A stretch of 64,000 bases of DNA from a virus (lineage: Duplodnaviria > Caudoviricetes), in the IMG/VR virus record IMGVR_UViG_3300010352_000625, positions 96,001 through 160,000 of that record. One strand, given 5' to 3'. Within the stretch, counting starts at the first letter, position 1, and each line of letters begins with the position of its first letter. The notes under the pieces were generated by a model, which saw nothing but the letters and a program-made list of their open reading frames with translations, was not told where the DNA came from and made no database searches. Of the stretch, positions 17,160 through 58,782 are shown one piece after another. The position numbers were made by a program, and so were the translations under genes.

Positions 17160-17323
17160 GTGAACTAATTACAGCCTAAAGGATGTAATCTTCCTGCTTC
17201 AACGGCTACAAGGTTCATAGTCTCCACAGGCTTGAATTCCCTAGGTTCCCTAGGTATTTGATTTTTAATTATTTTAGTCATTCATATTACCACCTAAAGG
17301 CAGTAATCTTTCTGTCTATTGTA
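17160..17323 (-). mobile_element. Non-autonomous IS200/IS605-family mini-element, copy A (164 bp)
   Basis: Subterminal hairpins at both ends; right end ...TAGTTCAC; left flank TTAC; tnpB-3'-like core GGGAATTCAAGCCTGTGGAG. Confidence 0.8.
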
Positions 17324-17350
17324 GTAAATGTTTTTACATTATTTCTATTT

Positions 17351-17611
17351 TTATCTAGCTTTAATTTCTTCTTCTGGTTCTTCAACTTCCGGTGCTTGAA
17401 CTTCTGGTGATGTTTCAGATTCTTCAGGTTTAACTTCTGTCAAATATCCTAACTTCATACCTAGTTCTATGGTAACTCTGTATTCACCTTGAAGTCTCTT
17501 TTGTTCATCTTTCCCTTCTTCTACTTGTTTTGTTATAGCATCAAACTTATTTTTAATATCATCAAGTTTCTTTAAAAATTCGTTTGGTATTGCATTATTT
17601 TCTGTTGTCAT
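17351..17611 (-). CDS. Small acidic coiled-coil protein (possible prefoldin-like)
   Basis: 86 aa with a good RBS. Confidence 0.45.
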   Translation of the reverse strand: MTTENNAIPNEFLKKLDDIKNKFDAITKQVEEGKDEQKRLQGEYRVTIELGMKLGYLTEVKPEESETSPEVQAPEVEEPEEEIKAR

Positions 17612-17926
17612 TTTCTAAACCATACTCCTTTTTATCTTTGCTTATTTATTATTTAACTTATAACATTTTATATAAATTAATAATTAATTCTTAATTTTAC
17701 TCACAACATTAGAAAAAAGAAATGTTTTGTGTAATATCAGAAATTATATAATTTCTAGTTCTTCCCAACAATCTCTGCATGTAGGTTTACAATCTCTTTC
17801 ACTTTTATCCATTAGATGTGGACAATATGTATTATCGATAATCCATTCTTTTAATTCTTCATTTGTCATTTTTCTTATATCATTAATTAAATTATCAATT
17901 TTTGTCATTTGATATATCATCTTTCA

Positions 17927-18250
17927 TTATTCGATTTTTTTAATTCCAAATACAACATAATCACTGTTTATTCCTAGAGCAGATAATGGTAAAACATAGC
18001 TAATTATAAAACTCATTGTATCAGCTTCTTTCATCGTTTTAACAAATTCATTATCTCTGAGATATTGATAATCATTTTTGCCATCATAATAACTAGTATA
18101 ACCTCTGGGTTCTCTAGCACATCGATAAAATTTTACTACATCACCATCTTGATAACCTCTATAGTTCTGTCTTAATTCAAAAGTTTTATGACCTGTTTTA
18201 ACTGCGTTCCAATATTCATCTAGTAGTTTCAAATGATGTGTTTGATTCAT
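17927..18250 (-). CDS. ASCH/DUF3850-family protein
   Basis: HHLK...YWNAV.TG.KTFELR...RGYQ.GD...YVVFGI. Confidence 0.75.
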   Translation of the reverse strand: MNQTHHLKLLDEYWNAVKTGHKTFELRQNYRGYQDGDVVKFYRCAREPRGYTSYYDGKNDYQYLRDNEFVKTMKEADTMSFIISYVLPLSALGINSDYVVFGIKKIE

Positions 18251-18256
18251 TTTTTA

Positions 18257-18850
18257 TTATCCTCTAATTATTTCATATAATTCATCTGGGGATAGTGACA
18301 TATTATTCATTAATTTTTCTATTGCTCTATCTCGTTGATTCTTCATTTTTTCAAGATCCGTTTGAAGTATAGATATATATTTTGTGTTTTTTTCATTATC
18401 TTCTAATAGTTGAGCAAGTTGAGTATTTAATTCCATCTGTTCATCTTCCTTATCATAAATATTTCCGATAATTTCAAATTTATCTTCATCTAATATATCA
18501 TTACCAACATAATGTTTTAGATTATAGTGTACCCAGTTATATTTTTGTACTAAATTTAATGGTATTGCTCTAAATGCGCCATCTTCGAATTCAACATAAT
18601 ATTTCCAATATCCTTGTTTATATAAAATATCTCCTTCAAATACTCTAGTTTTATTTTTATCTGTAAATCCAGAATATTCCTGAATTGTATTTGGGTCAAC
18701 TTCAACTTTATCAATATTATACAACATATCTGACCTATCAATATAAGATAATACATTACCATCAATTGTTTTTTCTTTTAAATAAAAACCATAATGCCAT
18801 TTTTTATGTTTATCTTTTCCTCTATAGATTATATCTCTCAACTTTACCAC
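18257..18850 (-). CDS. YopX-family protein
   Basis: YRGK...W.YG; VDPNTI..YSG..DKN...FEGDI; EIIGNIYD. Confidence 0.85.
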   Translation of the reverse strand: MVKLRDIIYRGKDKHKKWHYGFYLKEKTIDGNVLSYIDRSDMLYNIDKVEVDPNTIQEYSGFTDKNKTRVFEGDILYKQGYWKYYVEFEDGAFRAIPLNLVQKYNWVHYNLKHYVGNDILDEDKFEIIGNIYDKEDEQMELNTQLAQLLEDNEKNTKYISILQTDLEKMKNQRDRAIEKLMNNMSLSPDELYEIIRG

Positions 18851-18852
18851 CC

Positions 18853-19368
18853 TTATTTATCAACATACTGTAAATTAATACATATTTCTCTCAATGACAT
18901 ATTATTCTTCATATAATTTGTTAGATTTTCTATATCTTCATCTTCTAAATCATATTCATCTTTTAGTATATCATGATATTTCTTATCACCACTATCTATA
19001 TTCAATTTATACCAAGACATGTATTTAGGAAATCTAACTCCATTATCTGACATAAATTTAACATAAAAATAAATATATTCTTTTGGTTTAAGCCAATAAT
19101 TAGTAGTAACAAACATTTCAATATTCTTTCTTGTAAAATCATTATATACTAGATAATGATTTAAAGCCCAAGCTAAAAAATAATATTCATTTTCATCCAT
19201 ATCAGACAACAAATCATCTAAAGCTGTATTTGTGTCTGATACTCTATTATTTATTATATTATATATTTCTTTAATATAATAAAAAACCGTTGGCTTTTGC
19301 TTTTCTTCTTTTACTATTATATCTTCTGTTTTGTTTTTATTAGTAATAAAATTAAATAATTCACTCAT
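18853..19368 (-). CDS. Hypothetical protein
   Basis: 171-aa ORF, translationally coupled to neighbours. Confidence 0.5.
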   Translation of the reverse strand: MSELFNFITNKNKTEDIIVKEEKQKPTVFYYIKEIYNIINNRVSDTNTALDDLLSDMDENEYYFLAWALNHYLVYNDFTRKNIEMFVTTNYWLKPKEYIYFYVKFMSDNGVRFPKYMSWYKLNIDSGDKKYHDILKDEYDLEDEDIENLTNYMKNNMSLREICINLQYVDK

Positions 19369-19428
19369 TATTATCTATCTTTCTAATGCAACGTAGCAAT
19401 CTCGATTTTGTATATATATGCCATTTAA

Positions 19429-20937
19429 TCAATGAATATCCTCCACATTAATTCTTTTATAACTTATATTACTAATTATATCATCTTTATTTGGAATTGT
19501 CAACACCAATTCTATATCTTTATACAATACTTTTACTTTAAATATATCTTTTTTCTTTATTACATCACTAACTGTAAATTGATTTTTAAAATGATTATAC
19601 TTCTTTGCTATTTCACTTATGGTTTTCTTTTTATAATCAATATTTTGTTTTTTTAGTATTCCTAAAATATCTTTCATGTAATCAGTAAAATTTATAACAA
19701 ATTTATTAGTATCAGCATTTAAACAATCTCCAACATATGCAGTATAACCATCAGCATCAAATTCAGGAGTATAAATTTTATCAATATTTAATATATTAAT
19801 ATTATCATTTTTGTTAATTTTTTCGTTGATTTTATTAGTTTTTATATCTTTTTTATTCTCTTTTATTTCATTAGTATTTTTATTGTCATATATTTGACTA
19901 ATCATTTGATTAACTAAATGTATATCAATTTCACTAGGTTCTTTTTGATTAATATAATTATATAGAGATTCATACACAGCACCGTCTGGTATTGTATTAT
20001 TTTTATTTACCTCTGTTTTATTACTGATTAATTGAAATATATTAGTGGTCTCTTTAGCTATATAATTTAAACTGGCCTGTAAATTAAAATCTAATTCATT
20101 ATCAAGAGACACTTCTTTAGAGGGTTGATTATCTTCTTCATTATTTTCTGAATATTCATCTATAATATTATCAGTATTATTATATTCATCATCTTCATTT
20201 ATTATAGCTATATTATATTCATTTTTAAGCAATAATCTTCTAAATTCACCAAAATCATTCAAATTTATATTATTATCAGGTATAATTTCATCTATCTTAC
20301 TATTTTTAACCATTTGCACTTTATCAATATTTTGTACCCAAAGTCCTGATACAATAACAGCCAAATGTATCTTAATGACTTTAGCATCATAATCAAAAAT
20401 TTCATTCATAGTGTTAATTATATTTAATGCTGTATTTATATTTTGAACCTGTTTTTTATTATCAGATATTATTATTGGTTCAATTATAGCAACCATTCCA
20501 TTTTTAAACTGCATTTCTTCTTCTTCATAATTTATAATATGATTAAATATAGGTGCTGGTGTTACACAAAAATCATCTATACCATCATAAATTAACAATA
20601 ACATTTGATTTATAAATAATGATATTGCAATATGTAATTGATTATGAAAATTAAAGTCTGATAGTATTATTAATATAACAGACATTACTTCATCTATAAT
20701 TTTTTGCATATCTTCTCTATTTTTTATTTTATTATTTTTATGTAATATTGAAATATATCTAGTAATAACAGCTGACATATACAATCTAAGATAATATAGA
20801 TTTAAATAATATGAATTATTAGCCATATTAGTTAATACAAGTTTATCTATTTTTTCATTTATTTTATGACAAACATCGATATCTATTAAATAAGATTCTG
20901 ATTCAGAAAAATTAAATTTACTCAAAAGATATTCCAC
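19429..20937 (-). CDS. Hypothetical protein
   Basis: 502-aa ORF with a low-complexity acidic centre. Confidence 0.55.
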   Translation of the reverse strand: MEYLLSKFNFSESESYLIDIDVCHKINEKIDKLVLTNMANNSYYLNLYYLRLYMSAVITRYISILHKNNKIKNREDMQKIIDEVMSVILIILSDFNFHNQLHIAISLFINQMLLLIYDGIDDFCVTPAPIFNHIINYEEEEMQFKNGMVAIIEPIIISDNKKQVQNINTALNIINTMNEIFDYDAKVIKIHLAVIVSGLWVQNIDKVQMVKNSKIDEIIPDNNINLNDFGEFRRLLLKNEYNIAIINEDDEYNNTDNIIDEYSENNEEDNQPSKEVSLDNELDFNLQASLNYIAKETTNIFQLISNKTEVNKNNTIPDGAVYESLYNYINQKEPSEIDIHLVNQMISQIYDNKNTNEIKENKKDIKTNKINEKINKNDNINILNIDKIYTPEFDADGYTAYVGDCLNADTNKFVINFTDYMKDILGILKKQNIDYKKKTISEIAKKYNHFKNQFTVSDVIKKKDIFKVKVLYKDIELVLTIPNKDDIISNISYKRINVEDIH

Positions 20938-20952
20938 CTTAATATTTAAATT

Positions 20953-22260
20953 TTAATATACATCAACTATCATAAAACTATCATAAAATATATTCTCATC
21001 CTCAATAACTACAGAACCTATGCTGTTTTTCCCATCCCCCATATGTCCCCCGCCATCAAAAATATTCTTAGCTATATCAAATGCGTTTGTGCCATTAATA
21101 GTTAATTTTCTCAGCATCTTGTTATAGCAGGCGTAATTTCTATTATTGTCAATTATATCATCAATAGTTTTAACTCCTGAATTAACCCAATCTGTAGCTT
21201 TGTAATACCAAGGACTTACATTAGTGGAACTAATTTTTGTTAATTTATTATAAGATGTGTTGTATTTCCATATAATACTTCTACCACTATCAAAAGGTGA
21301 ATCAATAATAAGAAGTTTATATATGTTTTTACTTTCGTCTTTTTTAAATATAATTTTCATTTCCATACATGGTATTACTGGTTCCATATAATTAATTAAT
21401 AATTTTTCAGATTCTTCATTGTAAAGTTCGACAATTTTATTAATTACAGTATTTTGTGCTAATACGTTCATTAGTATCAGTACACTTTTTGCATTTACAT
21501 TTTTAATATTACTGATATCTCTATATATATCATTAATAGTATCTACAACATCTTCAAATGTTAATCCACAAGGTTGTAGTTTCAAATTATAAGCTGACAA
21601 TAAGTTACTTGACACACAATTGTTCTGATACTCAATTAATCCAGTTCTTATAGCTTTCATAAATCTAGCTATACTACTACAATATTTAGATATTTTTTTA
21701 TCGTATATATCCAGTTCTGTTGCTGATTCTGTGTTGAGAAATTTATCCAAATCTAGTTTAGCATTATCAACTATATCACCATAATTACCTAAAGCCAACA
21801 CTAAATTTAAATCATCTATATATGAAATATCTTTAATATTTTTATGATTAATAATATTCATTAAAGCGTGTTGTATAATAAGTCCACTACATAAACCATC
21901 TATATCAGCATGCATATATACATCTATATATTTAAATTTATATGCTAGTTCAGCTAATACACTATAAATAACTTCATACTTTTCAATCATTAAATATGTA
22001 TTACTTTTGTAAATTTTATTAAATTTAGTCTCCATTAGATGATGGTCGACTATTACTACATTATCGTCTTCATTAATGTCAAAATTTTGGTCCACTATTA
22101 TATTTAAATGTGAACTATCGAAATTCACAGGTCTAATAAAGGTACCAAAAGAATATTTAATTTCAATATCATTCTTGTCAAATATTTCAGTATCTTCTGT
22201 TTCGATATAGTTTATAGCTATAGTTTTATCTTCACCAGTTCCAAAAAATTCTAATTCCAT
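20953..22260 (-). CDS. DHH-family phosphoesterase (RecJ-like, permuted motif order)
   Basis: IVDHH, HADIDG and C-terminal GGGH motifs. Confidence 0.65.
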   Translation of the reverse strand: MELEFFGTGEDKTIAINYIETEDTEIFDKNDIEIKYSFGTFIRPVNFDSSHLNIIVDQNFDINEDDNVVIVDHHLMETKFNKIYKSNTYLMIEKYEVIYSVLAELAYKFKYIDVYMHADIDGLCSGLIIQHALMNIINHKNIKDISYIDDLNLVLALGNYGDIVDNAKLDLDKFLNTESATELDIYDKKISKYCSSIARFMKAIRTGLIEYQNNCVSSNLLSAYNLKLQPCGLTFEDVVDTINDIYRDISNIKNVNAKSVLILMNVLAQNTVINKIVELYNEESEKLLINYMEPVIPCMEMKIIFKKDESKNIYKLLIIDSPFDSGRSIIWKYNTSYNKLTKISSTNVSPWYYKATDWVNSGVKTIDDIIDNNRNYACYNKMLRKLTINGTNAFDIAKNIFDGGGHMGDGKNSIGSVVIEDENIFYDSFMIVDVY

Positions 22261-22703
22261 ATTTTCAAATCCTTTATAATATTATACATTCTTCTATTCA
22301 AGTAATAATCAGCTTTATTAATATTAATATATTTAAATGAATTCATTTCAGGTTTATTAATTCCATTCAATTGAAAGAAACTTGTACACTTCATATTTTT
22401 AATGTTTATCGCTTCATCAGCTTCAACTTGATATTCAAATACTACTAAATATTTGTTATAAGTTGGTAAATATAGCTGATTAGTTAAAAAGACTAATTTA
22501 CTCTCCTGTAGTACTATAGAAGTTTCTTCTTTCATCTCTCTGACAGCAGTAGTACTATAATTTTCTCCTTCTTCATTTACCCCTTTAGGTATGCTCCACA
22601 AATATCGACCGCCATTTCTAGCACCAGTTACTCTACCAACTAAAAATTCATTAGTATTTTTAATACGATATATCACACCACAACTATAAAGACTATCGCT
22701 CAT
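22251..22703 (-). CDS. NUDIX hydrolase
   Basis: PKG....GE....TAVREMKEETS Nudix box. Confidence 0.85.
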   Translation of the reverse strand: MSDSLYSCGVIYRIKNTNEFLVGRVTGARNGGRYLWSIPKGVNEEGENYSTTAVREMKEETSIVLQESKLVFLTNQLYLPTYNKYLVVFEYQVEADEAINIKNMKCTSFFQLNGINKPEMNSFKYININKADYYLNRRMYNIIKDLKIWN

Positions 22704-22732
22704 TTGAAAACTCCTTTACACTCATTATAATA

Positions 22733-22764
22733 TATATTATAACATATTTATCTATTTATGTCAA
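22733..22764 (-). promoter_or_regulatory. Sigma70/sigmaA-type promoter
   Basis: Minus strand TTGACA-N17-TATAAT with extended -10. Similar promoters lie near 25800-25832, 30742-30776, 38075-38109, 40860-40895, 42988-43021, 46765-46993 (x3), 51140-51167, 56003-56033 and 62618-62648. Confidence 0.75.
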
Positions 22765-22810
22765 GTTAATTATTAATATTAATTTTATAATCAAAAGGGT
22801 TTGATTTTTA

Positions 22811-23404
22811 ATGTATTATATCGGTATTGACGTTGGATTAAACGGCTCTATATGTATCTTAAATAATCAAGGTAAATTAGAAAAATCACTTAAAATGCCC
22901 GTAGTAAAGATAGAAGAAGGTGCTTATAAACACTGGTACAATGTTAATGAGATTATCGATATATTTAATAATTATAAAGACAGTAAAATTATTTTAGAAT
23001 ATCAAAGACCTATGCCAGGACAAGGTTCAGCGTCTATGTTTCGTTTAGGTAGAGGATTTGGATTGTTAGAAGGTATTACTACCACTATATATAAAGATAA
23101 CGTTACAATTACTGATCCTAAGATTTGGCAAAATTATCTAAGTAATAAATATTTAACTAAAGATATATCAAATGCTTTTAAGAAAAAAACTTTAAATTAT
23201 AATATTGTTATAGACACAATAGCTGATGATACTTATAAAACATGGTTTTTAAAGTATATCACCATGAAATCTATATCACCAGCTAAGATTAAAAGTTCTT
23301 ATTTATATTATATTATTACCAATACAGATAAAGATATATTAGATTTTAAAGATAATAATATTGTTGATGCTTATTTAATATCTAAATATTGTTATCTTAC
23401 CTAG
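22811..23404 (+). CDS. RuvC-like Holliday junction resolvase
   Basis: YIGIDVG..G; LE; SMF..GRGFG..EG; P..WQ; VDAYLI. Confidence 0.75.
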   Translation: MYYIGIDVGLNGSICILNNQGKLEKSLKMPVVKIEEGAYKHWYNVNEIIDIFNNYKDSKIILEYQRPMPGQGSASMFRLGRGFGLLEGITTTIYKDNVTITDPKIWQNYLSNKYLTKDISNAFKKKTLNYNIVIDTIADDTYKTWFLKYITMKSISPAKIKSSYLYYIITNTDKDILDFKDNNIVDAYLISKYCYLT

Positions 23405-24146
23405 CTTTTTTCTTTTTAACATTAGGAAATTCAACGGACATAATTATATCGATAGCTGTATACACACTATCAAGAGTATCTTCATTTTTAATTACATAAT
23501 CAAATTTAAAATTATCTAACCCTGTTTCAGATATATCATTTTTGGTGTCTGAATCCATTTCTCTATGAGCATAATTAGGGCCCTTTATGCATATATTTAG
23601 TTGCTTATTTAGATTAAAATCTGGATAGAACATATGCAATTTTTCAGCAAATTTTGTTATTTCATTTTCATGTCTGCAATCAACCAAGCATATATTTTTA
23701 TACATTCTGCCTTGAATTATAGAAGAACTAAATTCACGATTATAATTAATAAGTCTATCTATCCAAAAATCTGGGGCAAAAGTTCTAAATGCTAATCCTA
23801 CTTGTTGTAGTAATTTTCTCCCTTTTAAATCTTTATTGCCATCCCAACCATATTCTAATAATAAATATTTTAGTTCAGTAGCAAAACTAAAATTAGGAAA
23901 ATCATAATTTTCAAAAAGATACTTAGCAACCGTGTCTTTACCAGAACCTACTTTACCAGATAAACATATCAAATTATAATTAGTATTACCAGTACCGATG
24001 TAATTATTTTTTAATTCTAAATTATCTATATGATGTACACATTTTTCACATCGATAAAATTCATCAGTGTCGTGATAATATAAACAATCATTAAATGTAC
24101 AATAGGGAATTTTATTAGGCATATATTTTATTCTTCCATTTCTCAT
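23397..24146 (-). CDS. Deoxynucleoside monophosphate kinase
   Basis: LSGKVGSGKDT P-loop; R.LLQ.VG; DCRHENE; SE.GLD. Confidence 0.85.
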   Translation of the reverse strand: MRNGRIKYMPNKIPYCTFNDCLYYHDTDEFYRCEKCVHHIDNLELKNNYIGTGNTNYNLICLSGKVGSGKDTVAKYLFENYDFPNFSFATELKYLLLEYGWDGNKDLKGRKLLQQVGLAFRTFAPDFWIDRLINYNREFSSSIIQGRMYKNICLVDCRHENEITKFAEKLHMFYPDFNLNKQLNICIKGPNYAHREMDSDTKNDISETGLDNFKFDYVIKNEDTLDSVYTAIDIIMSVEFPNVKKKKAR

Positions 24147-24696
24147 AAAAATTTGGGTCTTTTAATTTTTCTTTAACATCATCTAATTCATAATACATTG
24201 TCACTTCAATTGGATATCCCATTTGTTTTTGATGTAATGCATAAGCTACAATCCACCAGTGTCTCGCATTAATTGATAAATTTCCTAAATTACCGTGATA
24301 TTGATAAAAAATATGACACTGTTTACATGAATTAATGGCGTGCATTATTTCACCACAAGAACCTGTTGAAGGTTTATTGGATAATACGCATACAACAACA
24401 TCTGAACTATCAATTTCATCAATCTCACTTTTCATCATGCCCATACAATCAGTTGTAGTATGATTACCAAAACTATCATGTTCACACCAAAATGGTCCTG
24501 TATATATAATATCTAGACCATGATTAACAATTACTTCTTCTTGTCTTTTAAATAATTTATTAACATCTTCTAATATTGATATTCTATAATCTTTTTTAAG
24601 TGCTTCAATTACATCATCGTCATTATCCCAATTAAAACCAAACGTGTCTTCACCAAATGTACCACTAAAAAATACTTTCAATCTGTTGTCATTCAT
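24115..24696 (-). CDS. Nucleoside 2-deoxyribosyltransferase-like protein
   Basis: IDSSDVVV.......STGS.GEI..A motif. Confidence 0.55.
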   Translation of the reverse strand: MNDNRLKVFFSGTFGEDTFGFNWDNDDDVIEALKKDYRISILEDVNKLFKRQEEVIVNHGLDIIYTGPFWCEHDSFGNHTTTDCMGMMKSEIDEIDSSDVVVCVLSNKPSTGSCGEIMHAINSCKQCHIFYQYHGNLGNLSINARHWWIVAYALHQKQMGYPIEVTMYYELDDVKEKLKDPNFYEKWKNKIYA

Positions 24697-24710
24697 AACA
24701 TCAACTCTCT

Positions 24711-25769: not shown

Positions 25770-25863
25770 CTTATATCATTCCTTAGTTGTTTGTTATTAT
25801 ATATTATAACACATATACTATCGGTTGTCAATGTTAATCTAACAATTTATTTTTTGTTCTTTC

Positions 25864-43178: not shown

Positions 43179-44813
43179 TTAAATATTACCTTTACTAAAC
43201 TCAGCGATAATATTAGGAACACTAGCATCAAAACCAGCTATATCTAGCATACCCTTATCTTCTGGGTCAGCAATACTAAAATTGGTTGCCTCTGTAGCAC
43301 AAACTATCAACTTAGTATCCAGCTTCATCTTTTCTCTGTAATTCTTTAGCCCGGCAAATGGGTGAGTTCTTCCACACCAAGTGTCATTGTCAGTCCATAC
43401 GTTGAATACGTCAACTTCTATATTATTCTTCAAGGCCCAGTTAATAGCCGCTGAACAATCTGTACCACCCCAATTACTTCTTACAACCTTCTTACAAACT
43501 GAATCTAGTTTATCTGTCTTTGTTATACCTAGGTCAACAACTTCATCACAAAAACCAACTACATGTACATTAGGTTCAGTCTTTAGTAGTATCATAGACA
43601 TTGCCGCAGTTACTTCACAACTTCTAAGATTAGTGTTATTTATTGTTGAACTCATTGAACCAGATACATCAAGAGCTACCAGATATCTCTTGTTAGTTGG
43701 TTCAACATTATCAAACGCAAGATAAAAAGCATCTTCCAAAGCTGATTCAATTGCTGGTACTGGTGTCCAACTATTACTACCTCTAAATCCTTCACCAGCT
43801 GAATAAGTCTTCAATGCTATTAATATATTAATAGGATGTATTCTTGACTTGCGTATAACTTCCTTATTGCTCAAAGTCTTACATACCATCATAGTACCCT
43901 TGCTTAGTGGTGCCAAATAACCAATCATAGTCATTTTAGCTAGATTTCTAACTAGTGCTGTTATAGGCATAGTACAGTTTTCACCATCATTAGACATCAA
44001 AGCTTCCCATATATCAACTTCATTAAGCAACTGAGTTGGTACAGTTTCTCTAGGCATATTATATTTCTTTATCAGCTTAACAGCGTTCTTAACTGTATCA
44101 CCAGACATTTCTGACAGATACTTTTCAAAATTCATACCAAGATTAAACTGGTCTATTGCTGAATTAGTATCATCCAATACAGGAAGTACTTCATCATAAC
44201 CCTTTACAATCTTGTTGAATATATAAGCCATATCATTATTCGTAGCTACTGGATGTGAAAGAGCTATGGTATCCTTATGTGTCCAACCTTCACGATTCTT
44301 GTACTTAATTACCTGATATACCAACTGACTAGTATTCTTATCCAAATACCAATTAGCTATACACTTTCTAAGACCTCTACCCCAACCACGAAACTTCTGT
44401 ACGTCTTCTACAAACTGAAACAGATGTGTAGCAGTACGACATACCTTATTAAGATTTCTAAAAGCATAAGCCTTAACATCAGCATTACCAAAGGCACTAG
44501 CCAATGCCATCACAAATATTGCTGAGTCATTCTTAGGTGCTCTACCTGCATCACTTATCTTAACAGTTTCATATACTACTCTACAACCATCCTGTTCAAT
44601 AAGCTTCAATACATTTTCAGCATTTTCCTTAGACAACACTGAACCCTTAACATAATAAGAATTCTTTTCTGAACCCAATATTAGGAATCTATTTAGTCTA
44701 TCCCAATCACTAATTGTAAATACATATCCACCAGCGTTATTCTTAACCTGATTCTTACCAAATACTGATTCTGTTTGTGGAACATTTGTGATTATATCTG
44801 AATACTTTGTCAT
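43179..44813 (-). CDS. Ro60 / TROVE-vWA RNA-binding protein (Rsr ortholog)
   Basis: QVKNNAGGYVF, RFLILGS, GWGRGLR, KY.NR.GW.HKD, MP.TALVRNL, HPI, vWA DVSGSM, TDNDT, D..MLDIAGFD. Confidence 0.93.
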   Translation of the reverse strand: MTKYSDIITNVPQTESVFGKNQVKNNAGGYVFTISDWDRLNRFLILGSEKNSYYVKGSVLSKENAENVLKLIEQDGCRVVYETVKISDAGRAPKNDSAIFVMALASAFGNADVKAYAFRNLNKVCRTATHLFQFVEDVQKFRGWGRGLRKCIANWYLDKNTSQLVYQVIKYKNREGWTHKDTIALSHPVATNNDMAYIFNKIVKGYDEVLPVLDDTNSAIDQFNLGMNFEKYLSEMSGDTVKNAVKLIKKYNMPRETVPTQLLNEVDIWEALMSNDGENCTMPITALVRNLAKMTMIGYLAPLSKGTMMVCKTLSNKEVIRKSRIHPINILIALKTYSAGEGFRGSNSWTPVPAIESALEDAFYLAFDNVEPTNKRYLVALDVSGSMSSTINNTNLRSCEVTAAMSMILLKTEPNVHVVGFCDEVVDLGITKTDKLDSVCKKVVRSNWGGTDCSAAINWALKNNIEVDVFNVWTDNDTWCGRTHPFAGLKNYREKMKLDTKLIVCATEATNFSIADPEDKGMLDIAGFDASVPNIIAEFSKGNI

Positions 44814-45217: not shown

Positions 45218-45318
45218 GTGAACTAATTACAGTCTAAAGACTGTAATCTTCCTGATTCATCGACTACAGATTTCGCATAGTCTCCACAGGCTTGAATTCC
45301 CTAGGTATTTGATTTTAT
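45218..45318 (-). mobile_element. IS200/IS605 mini-element copy B (internally deleted)
   Basis: Same right end and core as copy A; left flank TTAC. Confidence 0.75.
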
Positions 45319-45362
45319 GTAACTTAAAATCTAATAAATAGATTTTATTATACAAAAATTAA

Positions 45363-49807: not shown

Positions 49808-49998
49808 TGGGGTGAAGTGAACTAATTACAGTCTAAAGGCTGTAATCTTCCTGATTCATCGACTACAGATTTCATAGTCTCCACAGGCTTGAATTCCCTA
49901 GGTTCCCTAGGTATCTGTCTTAATATTAGTAAGGGAATTAAACCCTCGCCGTTCTGGTTCACAGCCAGACTGTACTTGTCAATTATACGAACAACACC
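49808..49998 (-). pseudogene. tRNA-His(GTG) interrupted in the 3' acceptor strand by mini-element C
   Basis: Removing 49817-49928 restores G-1...CCCTTAC|TTCAC-C-CCA; loop CTGTGAA. Confidence 0.8.
49817..49928 (-). mobile_element. IS200/IS605 mini-element copy C
   Basis: Inserted 3' of TTAC inside tRNA-His. Confidence 0.85.
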
Positions 49999-51129: not shown

Positions 51130-51268
51130 ATTAATACTAGTATATCATATTATATATAATTTGTCAAGTGTTAATTCTAACTTGTGCTTAGGTTGAAGCA
51201 CAAGTTAGAAATATCAATTTTGTGACATCACGAAATTAACGTTAAGAGATATCATAAAGGTGTATCAA

Positions 51269-51895
51269 TTATTTCATATCAAATAAATAATAACCCTTTG
51301 CTTTAAAATATACTGCTGAAGCATAATTAGAAACTATAGGAGCATATACACAAGAAAAAATAAAATTCTTATTTTTAATTTTAGAATATATTTCTTCAAA
51401 TTCTTTATATGTTACATGTACAGCATTACCAATACTAAATTCTTCATCCTTTGATACAACATAAATCTCCTTACCATCACCATAAAGAATTGATTCTTGA
51501 TTATACTTATCTCTTAATTCAATCCCTAACTGTTTAAATTGTTCATTGTCTAAACTTTTACCATCCCAAGTTTTGTTAGGAATAAAATAAGAAATTTCTA
51601 CAACTTTAAGTTCATCTGGAGTACCAGCGTTTTCTGTCCAATGCCCTTCTAATTGAATAGCACCTAGATTATTTTCTTTAATATCAGATAGTAATTGTTT
51701 GTTTCTGATAATATTCTTATTTTTAGAATATTCTCCTCTAAATGCTGTTATTATAATAAAACTTATTCCACTTTGTACATGACTTATAATTCTAGATAAA
51801 CCAGCACTAGCTTCAATAACTTTAAAATTGTTACTATCAGATATGTTTGGTGAAGTTTGTTCAATGATACTATCAAATTTTTTAAATATATTCAT
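51269..51895 (-). CDS. DUF3293-like protein, paralog of 52956-53831
   Basis: LSRI..H...IITAFR...N..RN..L..DI...G.W.E...E.SY...YNQESIL. Confidence 0.5.
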   Translation of the reverse strand: MNIFKKFDSIIEQTSPNISDSNNFKVIEASAGLSRIISHVQSGISFIIITAFRGEYSKNKNIIRNKQLLSDIKENNLGAIQLEGHWTENAGTPDELKVVEISYFIPNKTWDGKSLDNEQFKQLGIELRDKYNQESILYGDGKEIYVVSKDEEFSIGNAVHVTYKEFEEIYSKIKNKNFIFSCVYAPIVSNYASAVYFKAKGYYLFDMK

Positions 51896-52166
51896 TTTAA
51901 AATCTCCTTATCTCTATTATATAATGTAAAAATCTTTTATTACTTTTATTAATTTCAATATTCAATATCTTATTATTATTTAATCGATTAATCATATCTT
52001 TGTATTCTTCAGTATCTTCGACAACTATCCTATGTCTACCATTAGTCATAGTATATTTAATACCATTATATTCTGGTGTATTAACAATTACAGATAAATT
52101 ATCTATGTTATCTAAAAATAATTCATAAAAATCTTTAAATAGTATAATATTATTCATCATTATTAT

Positions 52167-52598
52167 TTACTTTAATATAAAAAACCCAGCATCTTTTTTC
52201 CACTCAGGCCAGGAATCTATTTCATTTTGTATTTCTTTAAATCTACGTTCAGCTTCTTCTATTTCTTTTTTTCGTTCTTCTTTTATTTTATTAACTTTGT
52301 ATAAATATTGTATTCTATCTAATTCATCATTAGTACTAAAAGCAACTGTCCATTCATTTTCTTCATCTGTAGGTAATTCATCAAATTCATATTTAGGAGT
52401 TTCTATTTTATTATATTTAATAGTTGTGTTAACTATCTCTCTTACTCTACCGAGACCATCACAAAAATCACACTTAATAAAACGATAATCAACAAAACCA
52501 CTAAATGTTGATTCAGCTTTTTCCATTTTTAAATATCCTCTACCCTTACATTTAGGGCAAATTATAATTTCATCTGTGTTTTTGATTTTTTCATCCAT
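52167..52598 (-). CDS. DnaJ-type zinc-finger protein
   Basis: CPKCKGRG and CDFCDGLG repeats. Confidence 0.65.
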   Translation of the reverse strand: MDEKIKNTDEIIICPKCKGRGYLKMEKAESTFSGFVDYRFIKCDFCDGLGRVREIVNTTIKYNKIETPKYEFDELPTDEENEWTVAFSTNDELDRIQYLYKVNKIKEERKKEIEEAERRFKEIQNEIDSWPEWKKDAGFFILK

Positions 52599-52734
52599 TT
52601 CTCATTCTTCCTTATCTTCTACATATATAAATTTATGATATATAAATTTATGAATTAAATACACACAAAAACAATAAAAAAATCTTGAATAAAAAGTATC
52701 ATCAATATTAAAATAATTAAATATGGGTGCATAT

Positions 52735-52898
52735 GTGAACTAATTACAGTCTAAAGACTGTAATCTTCCTGATTCATCAACTACAAATTTCATAGTCTCC
52801 ACAGGCTTGAATTCCCTAGGTTCCCTAGGTATTTGATTTTTAATTATTTTTGACATTCATATTACCACCTAAAGACAGTAATCTTTCTGTCTATTTTT
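52735..52898 (-). mobile_element. IS200/IS605 mini-element copy D (164 bp) interrupting a 37-aa membrane ORF (52655-52932)
   Basis: Both ends present; left flank TTAC; excision restores the reading frame. Confidence 0.85.
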
Positions 52899-52955
52899 GT
52901 AAAATAACAAACCAATCTAAAAATATTTTCATATAATTTTATCTCCTAATTTAAA

Positions 52956-53831
52956 TTAATCATCTAATCTATACATTCCAGTTAAATTTTTAAACCATTT
53001 TTCAGATTTATCATAGTATATATTATAATTACTTTCAATTGTTTTATTTTTAAATAATGTATCGATAAATTCTGATTTATCTTTATTATTCATCACAAAA
53101 GCACTGTTTGATTTTTTATTTTTCTGACTATAACCAAATCCATAATTATCTTCATCAGCTATCTTTTTATATGCTACATATTTATCATGCACATTTTTAA
53201 TATTATCAGGAGTGCTAAAATGAATCTGTATAAAAGTATCAGCTAGACTTACATTAGAATCACCATCATTTATATATAATTCAAATTTTACACTACCATC
53301 AGTTGTTTTTTCTACAGCTTTACCAACAATTACTGCCATTTGATTATATTTAATACACCACTCAAAAGCTAATTTTTTAAATTCATCATAATTCATTATT
53401 TTATTGCCATGTCTGTTATAACCAAGTATCATAAAACTTATTTCTTCTGAAGCTGGTTCATAACCTATATCATTCTGTTTCTTATCTGACCAACTACCAG
53501 CTATTTTAACAAAAGATAAATCATTATTAATAATATCAACGACTAATCTTTTTCTCTGCAACTCATTCTGATTTCTGGTATTCTCACTTCGTTCAGCACT
53601 AATAAACATAACAGGTACACCAGAATAAATATGTTCAGCAATTCTAGACATATTAGCAGATAACAAAGATTTTTTAGCTATATAAATATTATCATCTTTA
53701 GTATCAGCAGTTATATTGTTAATAATAGTAAATCTAGAGTTATTAGCTAAATCGTCATTAAGTGATTTCAACTCTTTATATATATTTGCTGTTGCTATAG
53801 TAACATTTAAATTTTTAATGATATCACTCAT
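52956..53831 (-). CDS. Hypothetical protein, paralog of 51269-51895
   Basis: MSRIAEH...FISAER...N...L..DI...G.W...EISF...YNQ.AV. Confidence 0.55.
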   Translation of the reverse strand: MSDIIKNLNVTIATANIYKELKSLNDDLANNSRFTIINNITADTKDDNIYIAKKSLLSANMSRIAEHIYSGVPVMFISAERSENTRNQNELQRKRLVVDIINNDLSFVKIAGSWSDKKQNDIGYEPASEEISFMILGYNRHGNKIMNYDEFKKLAFEWCIKYNQMAVIVGKAVEKTTDGSVKFELYINDGDSNVSLADTFIQIHFSTPDNIKNVHDKYVAYKKIADEDNYGFGYSQKNKKSNSAFVMNNKDKSEFIDTLFKNKTIESNYNIYYDKSEKWFKNLTGMYRLDD

Positions 53832-53859
53832 TGAACAATCAACTCTCTATTTAAATTAT

Positions 53860-53946
53860 TGGTGGGCGTGACAGGACTTGAACCTGCAAGACCTTTCGGT
53901 CAGTAGCTTCTAAGACTACCGTGTATTCCAGTTCCACCACACACCC
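53860..53946 (-). tRNA. tRNA-Leu(TAG)
   Basis: Long variable arm; loop CTTAGAA; CCA. Confidence 0.88.
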
Positions 53947-53952
53947 ACATCA

Positions 53953-54474
53953 TTATTTCTTTTCCCAAAAATTAATTATATCATCATAAGCTTCAATCAT
54001 ATGTTCCCACATAATACCATTATTAGGGTCTGTCTGAATAAATCTACATGGAAAAAATTCGATAATATTACTAGGAGTATCATCAAATATAATAAAATCT
54101 GAATATTTTTCCCCATATTTATCCATGTAATCTTTTATTTCATTACCACGTTCCATATAATTTTTAGATTCATTGATATCATTAGTCTTCCAAGGATTAG
54201 CAAATTTACCTCTAAATCCTGAATTAGCAAAAGCACTATTAACCCAGTGATATGCTGTCATATCAGTTTCTTTCACAAAATTTTTCCAACTTGATGTAAT
54301 TATAAATTCAACATCATACTCATCATGTATCTTATTAAAAAAATCTATTGCAACAGGGTCAAATCTAGCCCACATTTTATAACTCGCATTATGAGCAAAA
54401 TGTACTCTCCAACTTGTCAGCACACCATCAATATCAACAAAGATAGCATATTTCTTTTTATATTCTTTATCCAT
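53953..54474 (-). CDS. HAD phosphatase, 'Swiss Army Knife' RNA-repair type
   Basis: FVDIDGVL, ITSSW, RG.EI, IFDD, QTD...G. Confidence 0.75.
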   Translation of the reverse strand: MDKEYKKKYAIFVDIDGVLTSWRVHFAHNASYKMWARFDPVAIDFFNKIHDEYDVEFIITSSWKNFVKETDMTAYHWVNSAFANSGFRGKFANPWKTNDINESKNYMERGNEIKDYMDKYGEKYSDFIIFDDTPSNIIEFFPCRFIQTDPNNGIMWEHMIEAYDDIINFWEKK

Positions 54475-54790
54475 TTCGTTTTCATTCCTTCATATTATAA
54501 TATTATTTATATTTTATTATTAATCATAACACTTCAAATAAGGAATGTCTTCATTTACATGTTCTATATCATAATCTGGCATTGGAAGCATTTCAGCTAC
54601 TATTTCACATAATATTAAATCACATTCTTTAGGATTATATACATTATCTGTACTTCCATACTCACTAATATCTTCATTAATTCCATTTATTATTTCTTCA
54701 ACAAATTCTAATGCTGAATTTTTATCATTAAAATAGTCATTAATACCCATATCATAGCTATAAACAAAATATTTACTCATAAAAATAGCC

Positions 54791-55834
54791 TCATTTCATT
54801 GGTTTAATCTTTTCTTCGATGCAACTGATTTCTTCTTCAGTCAAGCCGTATTTTGCATAAAACTGACTGTCGATTTCAGAAATGCTCTTGCTCCAGTCGA
54901 TGTCGGATTTTGTGGTTAAGTCTTGTAACGGTACGAACTGGTACACATTCTGGTACACATTCTGGGACACTTTTAATATACCTACCATAAATCTAAAGAA
55001 TTTTCCGCTCATGTATTTTTGAAGATTTTCGGCTTCTAATTGCGTGTCAAATGCACCTATAGGAATTAATGAATCTGTACATACGGATTGAGGATATCCA
55101 ATATACGCTTTCCCAAGAATAGCAACCGGTTTATCATTGCTCAAAATACCGGCACCACCATTGCCTTTCGAAGTAAATACTTTGTATTTATCAATTACAT
55201 CTATATTTTTTGTGATATTTTCTCTCTTTGTATAACGGATTTTTTCATATGCACAACGAACTTCAATTGCACAATCAAAAGGTTTTTCTGTTGTGATTTT
55301 ATCGAGTTCTGACTTTTTACCTACTATTCCAAATGCATTACGTCCAGAGGTTATAGTGGTCATCGATACAAATCCATTGGCAGTGCGAACTTTATCTAAT
55401 ATACTAACCAAACAATTCATAGAGATAATAATATCCAATCCCTCTTCAAATAAAGGCCTTGTTGCTATATTTCTGCTGTCAGCATAGCACTCTGTGAAAA
55501 CGACATTGCCAATGTGACTTTTATCAAACAGATAATAATTAACACCACCTGCAATTTCAACCCCCTTAAACAACAGTTTATTGTCGGGATAATTAAAAAT
55601 TTTCGAAAAATGATTATTGTCCTTGATAAACTCTCTAAGTTTGATAAAGGATTTATCTTGCGCATCTGCAGTAAACCATCTTGAAGGTGTAATGAGAGAT
55701 GTGTAAACTGCGTTTAATTTAATAGTATTTTGAATAAACATAGGAAACAATTGCTTTGATAACGCAGTATTCTCTCCTGTATTGCTAATATTTTCCTGAT
55801 ATGGAGGATTTCCCACTACAGCGTTAAACTTCAT
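54791..55834 (-). CDS. Eco57I-like methyltransferase catalytic plus TRD module
   Basis: Starts MKFNAVVGNPPYQ; no SAM-binding motif I; higher GC than flanks. Confidence 0.75.
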   Translation of the reverse strand: MKFNAVVGNPPYQENISNTGENTALSKQLFPMFIQNTIKLNAVYTSLITPSRWFTADAQDKSFIKLREFIKDNNHFSKIFNYPDNKLLFKGVEIAGGVNYYLFDKSHIGNVVFTECYADSRNIATRPLFEEGLDIIISMNCLVSILDKVRTANGFVSMTTITSGRNAFGIVGKKSELDKITTEKPFDCAIEVRCAYEKIRYTKRENITKNIDVIDKYKVFTSKGNGGAGILSNDKPVAILGKAYIGYPQSVCTDSLIPIGAFDTQLEAENLQKYMSGKFFRFMVGILKVSQNVYQNVYQFVPLQDLTTKSDIDWSKSISEIDSQFYAKYGLTEEEISCIEEKIKPMK

Positions 55835-56036
55835 TTTCTTAACTTCTCCTTTTTCCCAATAGCTTGGCTCCAGACCAGACGCATTTGCCTTTATGCTACA
55901 TTCCGATATTTACAAATTAAAAAATATGTTAGATGAAAAGCATATATTGAATTTTCTTCAAAGAGATAATCAATATATAACGCCCCAACATCTTTTATAA
56001 TACTATTATATCACAACTTACTAATGTTGTCAAGTA

Positions 56037-56417
56037 TCAAATTTTATTTCTAAGTATCGTAACTATATCTTCAGTTTTCATTTTATTTTGTGCTACACTC
56101 ATTCCTATATTTACTAATTCGTCTGTTTCAAATTTAACATTATAGTTATTAATTTTAAGTAATACCAACATTATATGTATACCAATTCTTTTGTTACCAT
56201 CAGTGAAAGGATGATTAGTAATAAAAGAATAACACGCTCTAGCTATTTTTTCAATATCACTTTTGTATATTTCTTCATTGAAAGCACCAGCATAAGGCGA
56301 AAAATAAGCTGTCCAAAAAGACATGTTATCTCTAACTTTACCGCTGAACCCACCCGTTTTAGCAGTAATTACTTTATTAAGATTAACAACTTGTTCTTGT
56401 GTTAAATATTTCATCAC
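56037..56417 (-). CDS. Fic/Doc-family protein
   Basis: HPFTDGNKR motif. Confidence 0.88.
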   Translation of the reverse strand: MMKYLTQEQVVNLNKVITAKTGGFSGKVRDNMSFWTAYFSPYAGAFNEEIYKSDIEKIARACYSFITNHPFTDGNKRIGIHIMLVLLKINNYNVKFETDELVNIGMSVAQNKMKTEDIVTILRNKI

Positions 56418-56476
56418 TATTCTCCCAATATAGTATAAGCTTCTATATTATCATCCTTGAGTTTCTAGTCTTTTGT

Positions 56477-57646
56477 TTATTCAAAGGATTTAATTCTGGA
56501 TTCGATATAATCTATTTCATCTTGATCCAAATCGTATTTCGCATAAAGTTGCGTGTCTATATCTGTAATCGTTTTTCCCCAGTCAATATCTGAGTTAGAT
56601 CTGAAATTCTGCTGTGGGACAAAGGAATAAATATTACTTGTTATCACTTGGGCAATTTTTTTGATTCCAAGCATAAATCTGAAGAACTTTGTATTCATAT
56701 ATTTGTTAAGATTCTCTGCCTCTAATCGGTTGTCAAAATCACCAACAGCGATAAGTGTGTTTGAACAAATCGAATTTGGCCTCATAAGAAAAGTTCTTCC
56801 CAAAATCGCTACAGCCTTATCATCAAGCAGGGTTCCTGCGCCGCCATTCATTTTTGATGTAAAAACCTTCCAATGTTTTGACAGTTCTCTATTTCGCTTA
56901 ATTTCATCACTTGATATATATTTCATTTCCCCATAAGCGCAAAGAATCATTGTGTTATGCGTCACATCTGGTGAGGTTGTAGTAATTCTATCTAAAGATG
57001 CATCTATTGCAGGAATACCGAATGGGTTACGTCCAGTCACAATTTTTTCCATTGACTTAAAGTTTTCAGCGGTAACTTTATGTAGAATACTTATCATTCT
57101 ATTCATTGGGAGGACAACATCTAAACCTTTTTCAAAAAGAGGTCTTTCAACAACTGTTTCATTCTTGTTAGAAATCTCAGTAAAAATAATATCTCCTGAA
57201 TACCCATTGTGGTACAGGAAGTAATTTACGCCACCAGGAACACTAACATCACCAAATACATCACTACTGTTTAAATAGTTTACAATGTGGGAAAAATGGT
57301 TGTTATTTCTTAAAAAATTCCTAAGTGTCACAAAAGAACGGTCCTGAGCGTTTCCAGTAAACCACCTTGATGGCGTAATTAATGATAAATATCTGGGTTG
57401 CATCTTAATTACAAGGGTAATAAATGAAGGGTATAGTTGCTTGCTTAGTGACTTATTTTCTTGACCCCCAATATTTTCTTGATATGGTGGATTGCCAACA
57501 ATGGCATCGAATTTTAGCATGTTTTCTTCATCTCTTAGGACTACTTCGTCCTCCATAGTAATTTCATTAAACGACTTATTTTGATTCAACAATAATCTGA
57601 TTTTTTTATAATTAATTTCGTTATCATCGGTTTTGATATTGAGCAA
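56477..57646 (-). CDS. Eco57I-like methyltransferase catalytic plus TRD module (paralog of 54791-55834)
   Basis: KFDAIVGNPPYQ; TPSRWF; no motif I. Confidence 0.75.
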   Translation of the reverse strand: MLNIKTDDNEINYKKIRLLLNQNKSFNEITMEDEVVLRDEENMLKFDAIVGNPPYQENIGGQENKSLSKQLYPSFITLVIKMQPRYLSLITPSRWFTGNAQDRSFVTLRNFLRNNNHFSHIVNYLNSSDVFGDVSVPGGVNYFLYHNGYSGDIIFTEISNKNETVVERPLFEKGLDVVLPMNRMISILHKVTAENFKSMEKIVTGRNPFGIPAIDASLDRITTTSPDVTHNTMILCAYGEMKYISSDEIKRNRELSKHWKVFTSKMNGGAGTLLDDKAVAILGRTFLMRPNSICSNTLIAVGDFDNRLEAENLNKYMNTKFFRFMLGIKKIAQVITSNIYSFVPQQNFRSNSDIDWGKTITDIDTQLYAKYDLDQDEIDYIESRIKSFE

Positions 57647-57689
57647 ATAGATTATCGAGTAATTCTAAATTTCTCATGAGATCCTTCAT

Positions 57690-58679
57690 TTATTTTTTAT
57701 TGAGTAAAGAAACAAATTTAATTTCTTTACTTACACCCCAATCCATAACCTTGCAATAAATCCCTGAATGAAGGAGCGGGTCGTTTTTTGCACATCCCTC
57801 ACAAGGCGTGTTCTCTATGGGTGCATCGAAAAGACTCAATTGAACAAAATTACTGTTTTTATTTTTACAACTATTTGGGACTACAAATTTTAATCCGTCC
57901 ATTTGCCAGATGTTCCACGAAATGACAAAGGCAATATTTAATAGTAGTTCTTCACATGGCTCATAATGGAATTTATTTATATAATAGTCGATAAATGTAC
58001 ACAATAAATTTTCTCTTGCTAATAGAACATTATCTCCCTGCCAGTCATAGCCATAAATACTTTTATACGCCTTGTATGCCCAATTTAGCCATTCTTCTTT
58101 ATCACTTACATTTTCAGATAACACACGCAATTTTCTATCAAGAAGGCCTATTCGTTCAGATATTTCAATATATTGTCCGATTACAGTATCATAGCGACTA
58201 ACCAAATACGGTGCTTCTCCACAACATATTTCAAGCCGTGACTCGAGTACATAATCTTTCCAAGTCTTCCCGCTTTTGGTTGGAAATTTAATTGGCTCAT
58301 GTATCGAATCCCAAGAATTTTCTTTCCCGATATTAAAAACATGCTTTTGTCCAAACCACTCATAATCTATAAGATTATTCTGTTTGTTACATACCCAAGA
58401 AGGTGTAAAGACTTCGGCTTTTTCACGAATACGCATAATTTGGTTTTCTTTCGTTTTTTCAGTCCTCGGTTTCACTATGTCACGATAGAATCCAGTTACA
58501 GAGTCAATTGTGATTTGATCATCGAAATTAAATTGATTACCATGAACAGAATAATTATTTGTAGCCCAAATAATGTTCTTTTTTGTGGTCTCATCTTTAA
58601 GGAGAATTTCCAGTACGTTTGGACTGAATTCTTTATTCTTTTCTTCAATAAAATTCATTGTATAATTCAGCATTTTCAA
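57690..58679 (-). CDS. Type IIG RM-associated methyltransferase-like subunit (SAM-binding half)
   Basis: AEVFTP, LEICCGEAPY, YGYDWQ, WQMDGL; no NPPY. Confidence 0.7.
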   Translation of the reverse strand: MKMLNYTMNFIEEKNKEFSPNVLEILLKDETTKKNIIWATNNYSVHGNQFNFDDQITIDSVTGFYRDIVKPRTEKTKENQIMRIREKAEVFTPSWVCNKQNNLIDYEWFGQKHVFNIGKENSWDSIHEPIKFPTKSGKTWKDYVLESRLEICCGEAPYLVSRYDTVIGQYIEISERIGLLDRKLRVLSENVSDKEEWLNWAYKAYKSIYGYDWQGDNVLLARENLLCTFIDYYINKFHYEPCEELLLNIAFVISWNIWQMDGLKFVVPNSCKNKNSNFVQLSLFDAPIENTPCEGCAKNDPLLHSGIYCKVMDWGVSKEIKFVSLLNKK

Positions 58680-58722
58680 TCCTCCAGCTTTATCTGAATC
58701 AAAAGTTGCTCACATAGGTGAA

Positions 58723-58782
58723 TATGAAATCTGTAGTCGATGAATCAGGAAGATTACAGTCTAAAGACTGTAATTAGTTCAC
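58723..58782 (+). mobile_element. IS200/IS605 mini-element copy E (right end only, inverted)
   Basis: tatgaaatctgtagtcgatgaatcaggaagattacagtctaaagactgtaattagttcac. Confidence 0.8.

Follow-up and report, generated by a model that had tools for sequence, protein, structure and literature searches.

The stretch of phage DNA analysed here (the window: 64,000 nucleotides, G000:C1:96001-160000 of an IMG/VR virus record of 206,669 bp rated 100% complete, below called phage G000) carries five dispersed short repeats, A to E, which by the features of their sequence descend, through internal deletion and with loss of all coding capacity, from one TnpB-only (IS1341-type) IS200/IS605 element of this phage lineage. 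On balance the evidence favours, by no great measure, a reading in which three of these descendants of a TnpB element, A, C, and D, would supply the phage TnpB with extra guides in trans, with transposon homing or marker exclusion as the outcome. The G+C content of the DNA is 22-31%, and of the 18 tRNA genes in the window almost all are encoded on the minus strand. Contigs identical or related to it come from anaerobic-digester and activated-sludge metagenomes.

All five repeats listed in the first-pass annotation of the window are present, and the coordinates of A to D were confirmed by direct reading and alignment. A 35-nt right-end pattern with up to three mismatches allowed occurs at exactly five sites in the window (0 expected from 100 shuffles), and a search of the window with an nhmmer profile built from both ends gave no copy beyond A-E. 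Copy A (17160-17323, minus strand) is a complete 164-nt mini-element comprising a hairpin-bearing left end, a deletion junction, and a 113-nt segment made up of the tnpB 3' part and the right end, terminating in TAGTTCAC. It adjoins the TTAC target, or transposon-adjacent motif (TAM), at 17324-17327 (minus strand), and the first 6 nt of its predicted guide region TACAATTAAACTTATACTTA (17140-17159, minus strand) are the 6 nt found after the left TTAC. Copy D (52735-52898, minus strand), placed after TTAC 52899-52902, is likewise a complete 164-nt mini-element with the architecture of A, with which it shares 93% identity; its predicted guide region is ATATGCACCCATATTTAATT (52715-52734, minus strand). 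In both, a short microhomology, AATATGA..ATG, marks the junction between ca. 50 nt of left end and the 113 nt with which the element closes. Copy B (45218-45318, minus strand), adjoining TTAC 45319-45322, consists of the right end only; its left-end hairpin is gone, and a 9-nt deletion has removed one of two CCTAGGGAA units and with it stem 1 of the RNA scaffold described below. In copy C (49817-49928, minus strand, adjoining TTAC 49929-49932), ca. 15 nt of the left-end start are joined to the full 96-nt scaffold, and the loss of the left hairpin leaves it fixed in place. Copy E (58717-58782, plus strand), originally given from 58723, exists, but its homology begins ca. 6 nt earlier; it is a right-end stub of the last 66 nt of the element and nothing more, antisense to the surrounding genes and with no TTAC at its left.

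The mutual identity of the copies is 84-96%, and all of them lie between open reading frames (ORFs). The common ending in a hairpin followed by TAGTTCAC was correctly noticed, as all five terminate in ...GATTACNNNCTTTAGNNNGTAAT-TAGTTCAC, and so were the TTAC immediately 5' of A, B, C, and D and the co-orientation of four copies with phage transcription, since A-D, on the minus strand, share the direction of the neighbouring genes. Judged by the properties of palindrome-associated transposable elements (PATE) and miniature inverted-repeat transposable elements (MITE), namely lack of coding capacity, possession of both ends, and occurrence at several sites, A and D belong to this class and, having both ends, should still be mobilisable, while B, C, and E do not retain both ends and are eroded derivatives.

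A search of the rest of the genome for tnpB with the same ends, proposed in the first-pass annotation, which took the lack of a cognate TnpB as decisive against its view, revealed an intact and selected tnpB with identical ends. The full-length element (G000:C1:179745-181140) lies 21 kb past the window end, has TTAC as its target, and comprises a left end (179746-179791) and a right end (181013-181140), 1.3 kb apart, bracketing an ORF of 422 aa. The ORF matches Pfam families OrfB_IS605 (PF01385, 1.5e-10) and Cas12f1-like_TNB (PF07282, 1.2e-11), both above the cut-offs, and its matches in PDB are TnpB structures. The TnpB C-terminus, ...IPREPREFKPVETMNLVAVEAGRLQSLDCN*, is what the core of the repeats encodes, in agreement with its early recognition as a TnpB tail, and translation stops at the TAG contained in TAGTTCAC. 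The description of the repeats as devoid of TnpA and TnpB is thus true inside the window, and for TnpA in the whole phage, but one full tnpB element is located elsewhere in the genome. Five phage-borne copies of tnpB were collected, all intact and coding for proteins of 422-428 aa; their pairwise ratios of non-synonymous to synonymous substitution (dN/dS) of 0.16-0.42 indicate that the cognate tnpB in the phage genome is under purifying selection. Homologues of this TnpB in databases number 2,930, of which the closest genomic ones outside phage-like contigs belong to multi-copy tnpB-only elements of rumen Synergistaceae and Fretibacterium metagenome-assembled genomes (MAGs), with 50-56% identity. 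A tnpB carried by a phage is nothing new, TnpB homologues being present in 373 isolate phage records; the DNA of the mini-elements gave no match in 50,697 such records. No Y1_Tnp (PF01797) match was found in the complete phage record, in agreement with a motif scan, and no ORF with the HUH motif in any phage-related locus fetched; the element is for this reason filed as non-autonomous, of the tnpB-only or IS1341 type.

The ends of the element conform to the IS200/IS605 pattern. The left hairpin, ATTACTGCC/GGTGGTAAT, and the right one, ATTACAGTC/GACTGTAAT, are subterminal imperfect palindromes in the same orientation, and there are no terminal inverted repeats. In the full element the left hairpin is placed 16 nt 3' of TTAC with AAAG directly 5' of it, and the right hairpin is directly preceded by GAAG and followed, after 8 nt, by the end of the element, TCAC. 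IS608 has TTAC and AAAG at its left and is cleaved a few nucleotides 3' of the right hairpin (PMC3201880). A right-end scan of viral and metagenome contigs yielded 26 loci, many of them 80-95% identical to other regions of phage G000. Wherever the left junction is full and can be read, in phage G000 and in related viral, MAG, and metagenome contigs, TTAC stands 5' of the insertion (20/20); a 21st site, in contig L014, has TTAC too, but the start of its left end is lost, and L095 reads TTAT at a site where L105 reads TTAC. As to family membership, tnpB with RuvC and zinc-finger domains is present between the ends, and a Y1 HUH TnpA is absent. The ends, the family tnpB, and the 20 sites bear out the initial assignment of the repeats to IS200/IS605 derivatives inserting 3' of TTAC.

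The element and its short derivatives have moved in the phage lineage. Related contigs have two-ended mini-elements of 155-173 nt at 10 additional sites and full tnpB elements at another four. Four mini-elements sharing the left-end start ACTCATTA... occupy four unrelated sites, which is predicted if a mini-element transposes as a unit. Phage G000, in turn, has the empty allele at four sites occupied in its relatives. At 21.4 kb, occupied in L109 by a two-ended 164-nt mini-element, TTAC is intact and the guide matches at 14/16 positions; at 72.2 kb (72165), occupied in L011, L012, and L112, the TAM is TTGC and the guide region has one mismatch; at 73.3 kb (73256), occupied in L113, the TAM is TTGT; and at 112.8 kb (window 16788-16811, minus strand, with TTAC at 16808-16811), where L014, L094, and L108 have a full-length tnpB element, TTAC is intact and the seed has a 1-nt deletion. 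The TAM is thus mutated at two of the four empty sites of this tnpB-carrying phage, and a third has a seed indel; such changes would fit cleavage-resistant alleles, but four sites are too few to be set against the ordinary divergence of ca. 9%.

The L113 element is 98.4% identical to the full copy of G000 yet occupies a different locus, in a phage that is 91% identical, which points to recent movement; mobility in the phage lineage is, on these sequence comparisons, recent. At 21.4 kb, L090 and L104 have insertions at the same TTAC as L109, with the left hairpin gone, from which it follows that the left end is lost in place and recurrently. The D site is occupied also in the relative L093, which is 80% identical. 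Clean empty and occupied alleles, the comparison called for in the first-pass annotation, are therefore available for sister insertions in related phages, but not for the five window copies. Contig L096, considered as a source of a full-length element at the D site, was rejected; it has the left flank of the D site and the right flank of the 16.8-kb site, and as a chimera or a rearrangement is not used as evidence. A second, unrelated tnpB-only element, coding for a 432-aa TnpB and having other ends, is present in L012 (6222-7654) and L112 (ca. 5700-7130), and G000 is empty at the corresponding position (C1:~70970), so that the lineage was invaded by at least two TnpB families.

The last ca. 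96 nt of the element form three hairpins (stem 1, middle stem, and right-end hairpin), for which covariation in 50 homologues gives support. Two flanking motifs, GGAAG and TAGTTCAC, do not vary among 48 homologous right ends; the hairpin that they enclose has a wholly different sequence, rich in GC in Synergistaceae and in AT in the phage. RNAalifold applied to an alignment of 30 sequences gave stem 1 and the right-end hairpin, with double changes at 10 pairs. In 30 divergent homologues, including those from Synergistaceae, 91.9% of the cells are paired and 70 are compensatory, a result reached by 0/500 shuffles and closely approached by no register shift, and in 21 phage-family copies 97.6% of the cells are paired (again 0/500 shuffles). 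The middle stem emerges within these 21 copies, where GACTA/TAGTC is replaced by GACTG/CAGTC. Stem 1 lies in the coding tail, and its pairing is kept while the peptide differs (PREPRE, PAGRRE, PTEHRE); moreover, G.U replacements occur, which pair in RNA and not in DNA. Both observations argue for a constraint acting on RNA. This conserved three-hairpin RNA is read here as a putative omega-RNA scaffold of TnpB, overlapping a C-terminal tail that is probably dispensable. In ISDra2 the functional scaffold is 116 nt long and is followed by a guide of 16 nt, and the protein can do without the C-terminal tail that overlaps it (PMC10097598). The retained scaffold has 113 nt in A and D and ca. 97 nt in C, and by the ISDra2 yardstick these three copies are plausible guide cassettes, while B and E are not. 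A, C, and D retain all three hairpins, that at the right end of A having a single T.C mismatch; B and E do not. Since the whole scaffold is found only in these three, the window can provide at most three guides; of the five omega-RNA-like scaffolds originally proposed, each with its guide, A, C, and D stand as candidates, but B is without stem 1 and E is a stub.

No Rfam family corresponds to the scaffold, at either gathering or E-value thresholds. A long-range helix CCTG/CAGG around the middle stem was considered and is not claimed, its pairs being invariant, with no real covariation, and the fourth pair failing in 19/30 sequences. In L089 (5853-6078) and L106 two right-end/scaffold units stand 126 nt apart as a tandem, and what would be the "flank" of the leading unit is the start of the next; this arrangement resembles a two-unit omega-RNA array.

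The mechanism that would link these components begins with elements travelling as single strands and inserting 3' of TTAC. Movement needs a Y1 TnpA, and as none is encoded by the phage it must come in trans, presumably from the host or from another element. The 16-20 nt of flank after ...TTCAC would serve as the guide, and the five strings quoted as guides in the first-pass annotation are the true 3' flanks of the copies. By analogy with other systems of the OMEGA kind (obligate mobile element-guided activity), A, C, and D would be transcribed by read-through, and the transcripts would be processed by TnpB (PMC10278001). The phage TnpB would then load the A, C, and D RNAs in trans and cut TTAC plus the flank, that is, the element-free allele of each site. 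Experiments on other OMEGA systems have shown that stand-alone omega-RNAs function in trans with compatible effectors (PMC10691335), and PATE elements often encode omega-RNAs (PMC10055086). One step further, in a mixed infection with relatives, the empty alleles would be cut and the element copied in by recombination, resulting in transposon homing or marker exclusion; "non-restorative transposon homing" is listed as theoretical for phages in a review (PMC13565253).

Several observations weigh against this proposal. No empty alleles of A-E were found in other phages: an IMG/VR search for relatives spanning the B-E region, anchored on the neighbouring 291-aa and 544-aa proteins, returned none, and consequently no empty alleles of the window copies were obtained, while an exact scan of viral contigs for an intact allele of the tRNA-His gene split by C, with TTAC joined to the C flank, was negative. 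The conservation of hairpins in the mini-elements is no proof of selection on the mini-elements, as the compensatory changes could date from full-length parents, and covariation in the right-end hairpin is also expected from the binding of DNA by TnpA. Promoter-like sites of the sigma-70 type, scanned for in the surroundings of D and of the full element, were no commoner than in shuffled sequence. A TnpA fit to move these AT-rich ends was found nowhere in the loci scanned; the motif scan of all fetched loci detected a single TnpA, that of a Fretibacterium MAG, unlinked to the phage elements. Finally, the canonical RuvC-II glutamate is replaced in this clade by glutamine, Q299, with E301 two residues on, in a YMQDE motif invariant in 24/24 homologues. 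The RuvC-I D219, the RuvC-III D375, and the zinc-finger cysteines are invariant in the 24 aligned homologues, and conserved RuvC-II rearrangements, some of them virus-specific, have been described and predicted to be active (PMC10691335); the invariant E301 and this precedent suggest that the phage TnpB may be an active nuclease.

The strongest rival, to which a real though minor share of belief is given, regards the copies as passive relics: non-autonomous MITE/PATE copies and their decay products, moved occasionally by a TnpA in trans, with the scaffold intact merely through youth and TnpB using its own omega-RNA only. B, C, and E are visibly decaying, and erosion in place at a single site is documented by the two-ended L109 beside the left-end-deleted L090 and L104. 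The mutual identity of 84-96% implies that the copies are not old, the promoter scans gave no signal, and phage genes have been damaged by the insertions (tRNA-His, tmRNA, and a small ORF, described below), which looks selfish rather than useful. Against this, the erosion is one-sided: B, C, L090, and L101 lose the left end and keep TTAC, the whole right-end scaffold (apart from the 9-nt deletion in B), and the exact TTCAC junction. Furthermore, the mini-elements L097a and L099 carry the compensatory GACTG/CAGTC state absent from all full-length copies sampled, and trans use of stand-alone omega-RNAs has experimental backing in other OMEGA systems (PMC10691335).

A further feature of the insertions is the duplication of short flanking sequences. 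At 6/20 insertions (A, B, L109, L110, L100b, and L113) the 4-8 nt after the left TTAC are identical to the first 4-8 nt of the right flank, and 0/20,000 permutations reach six. Copies A and B have TACAAT and ATAAAAT, respectively, after both the left TTAC and the right TTCAC. At the 73.3-kb and 21.4-kb sites the repeated stretch is single in the empty allele and double in the occupied one (7 nt at 73.3 kb), and L113 differs from the full copy of G000 in exactly the duplicated bases despite the 98.4% identity elsewhere. In L012 the start of the left end matches, over 9 nt, the sequence flanking the copy A site on its right. A duplicated target is not what canonical peel-and-paste transposition should leave, so these duplications are unexpected; the empty alleles are clean, yet duplication accompanies 6/20 insertions. 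The original statement that there is no consistent target duplication is to be corrected in that A and B do carry a short repeat.

These duplications enter a further-reaching interpretation, held to be rather unlikely as a whole, in which one TnpB with dispersed guide cassettes would form a system of multi-target RNA-guided homing or exclusion directed against co-infecting relatives. The left-end-less B, C, L090, and L101 would be fixed guides, and the flank duplications would be the footprint of a non-canonical insertion or re-insertion; candidates are copying during the repair of breaks made by TnpB, or flank bases carried along when the element is re-inserted into an empty allele.

There is very little to be said for a domestication of TnpB and the scaffolds as RNA-guided binders or repressors resembling TldR, regulating phage or host genes without cutting. 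The change of the RuvC-II glutamate to glutamine across the clade and the immobilisation of the left-end-less B and C beside fixed flanks would suit it. However, there is no variation at D219, E301, D375, or the zinc-finger cysteines, the protein is of full length with its C-terminal tail and not truncated as TldR is, the element retains transposon ends and was recently mobile, and a search of the phage genome for further TTAC-adjacent targets of the guides, at up to two mismatches, was negative for all of them. That the repeats are not transposon-derived at all, being regulatory repeats, terminators, or tRNA-related sequences with a chance likeness to insertion sequence ends, is in practice already refuted: their location in intergenic, tRNA-rich DNA and hairpins that are terminator-like on the opposite strand are outweighed by their co-linearity with the full tnpB element of this phage at its left and right ends, presence or absence at TTAC in related phages, and the lack of a matching Rfam family.

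The sites occupied by the copies deserve a description. Copy C, inserted after ...CCCTTAC in the 3' acceptor arm, splits a tRNA-His(GTG)-like gene on the minus strand into a 5' part (49929-49997) and a 3' part (49808-49816), and owing to this position the C guide would match the 3' end of the intact tRNA-His. No other tRNA-His was found in the phage genome. When C is removed in silico, ARAGORN with default settings finds no tRNA-His; one is detected at the 95% threshold only, owing to two U.U mismatches that remain in the acceptor stem. Outside the window, a seventh copy, F (G000 166942-166991), lies directly after TTAC inside a transfer-messenger RNA (tmRNA) gene (G000:C1:166812-167182, minus strand; L008:1371-1741) matching Rfam RF00023 with 97 bits (E = 6e-38); F has 50 nt, in which the left hairpin's 5' arm runs directly into the right hairpin's 3' arm. 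Copy D truncates a small ORF of 37 aa coding for a hydrophobic product and starting at 52932. The right flank of E (58779-58820) repeats a promoter/ribosome-binding-site-like stretch at 56414-56455, forming a direct repeat of 42 nt, 88% identical, whose distal copy begins at the TCAC ending copy E. The repeat brackets a 2.4-kb block with an Eco57I-type methylase gene (56477-57646) and an ORF of 329 aa of unknown family. A Fic/DOC-family ORF (56037-56417) is situated between this methylase ORF and another of Eco57I type (54791-55834), the region 54791-56417 being on the minus strand. A Ro60 orthologue with TROVE and Ro60 von Willebrand factor A (vWA) domains (43179-44813, minus strand, E = 2e-63) is found beside the tRNA cluster, and copy B lies ca. 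400 nt upstream of it.

TnpB-only elements, PATE-like mini-elements, and trans-acting stand-alone omega-RNAs are already established, so that the basic reading is ordinary for the field; the arrangement is known, and the phage setting is less usual. Less expected are the elements inside a phage tRNA-His and a phage tmRNA and the flank duplications foreign to the IS200/IS605 mechanism. The value of the system would lie in its being a compact natural test bed: a lytic-type phage that has one tnpB but lacks tnpA, a set of three intact additional guide cassettes together with decayed ones for comparison, and sequenced relatives with elements at other TTAC sites, for which G000 has the matching empty alleles. 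It would allow a direct test of "non-restorative" TnpB homing between co-infecting phages, so far theoretical (PMC13565253).

With regard to its ends, the element is most readily compared with IS608 of Helicobacter pylori. Common to both are subterminal imperfect hairpins at both ends, in the same orientation and with no terminal inverted repeats, insertion 3' of TTAC, AAAG 5' of the left hairpin, a 4-nt "guide" (here GAAG) 5' of the right hairpin, and an end a few nucleotides 3' of the latter (here TCAC). The empty sites look scarless, as in IS608, with the reservation of the duplications named next. The phage and its element differ from IS608 in having no tnpA (IS1341-type, tnpB-only), in the spacings (16 and 8 nt vs. 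19 and 10 nt), in the right cleavage motif (TCAC vs. TCAA), and in the 4-8-nt flank duplication at 6/20 insertions, of which the IS608 mechanism predicts none.

The mini-elements resemble PATEs of Haloquadratum and Geobacillus and the stand-alone omega-RNAs (Altae-Tran et al. 2021, as cited in PMC10691335 and PMC10055086) in that they encode no protein but retain the ends, with a right end coding for an omega-RNA (here a putative one), and also in being dispersed, with a compatible TnpB elsewhere in the genome and a different flank at each copy as a potential guide. Here, however, the replicon is a 207-kb phage of a digester/sludge community and not a cellular chromosome, it has one tnpB copy and no TnpA, and several phage copies have specifically lost the left end; as to the stand-alone omega-RNAs, their use in trans is presumed for the phage.

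The protein recalls TnpB of ISDra2 from Deinococcus radiodurans in its domain matches, RuvC and zinc-finger TNB, and the right end recalls that element in the overlap of the omega-RNA, here putative, with the tnpB 3' end and the dispensable C-terminal tail, in a scaffold of ca. 116 nt ending at the transposon boundary, and in a guide, here predicted, taken from the flank. The similarity of the two proteins is distant (phmmer E = 7e-13), RuvC-II reads YMQDE in the phage TnpB vs. xxEDL in ISDra2, and the scaffold described here has three supported hairpins. The TAM of ISDra2 is TTGAT, and that of the phage element TTAC. Finally, the proposed role would bring the phage TnpB close to Seg and Mob, the free-standing homing endonucleases known from T-even phages, with which it would share the cutting of the element-free allele of a co-infecting phage by a phage nuclease, followed by repair that copies in the element together with neighbouring markers; it would differ from them in recognising its target by an RNA guide and TTAC, and in having several guides for one nuclease.

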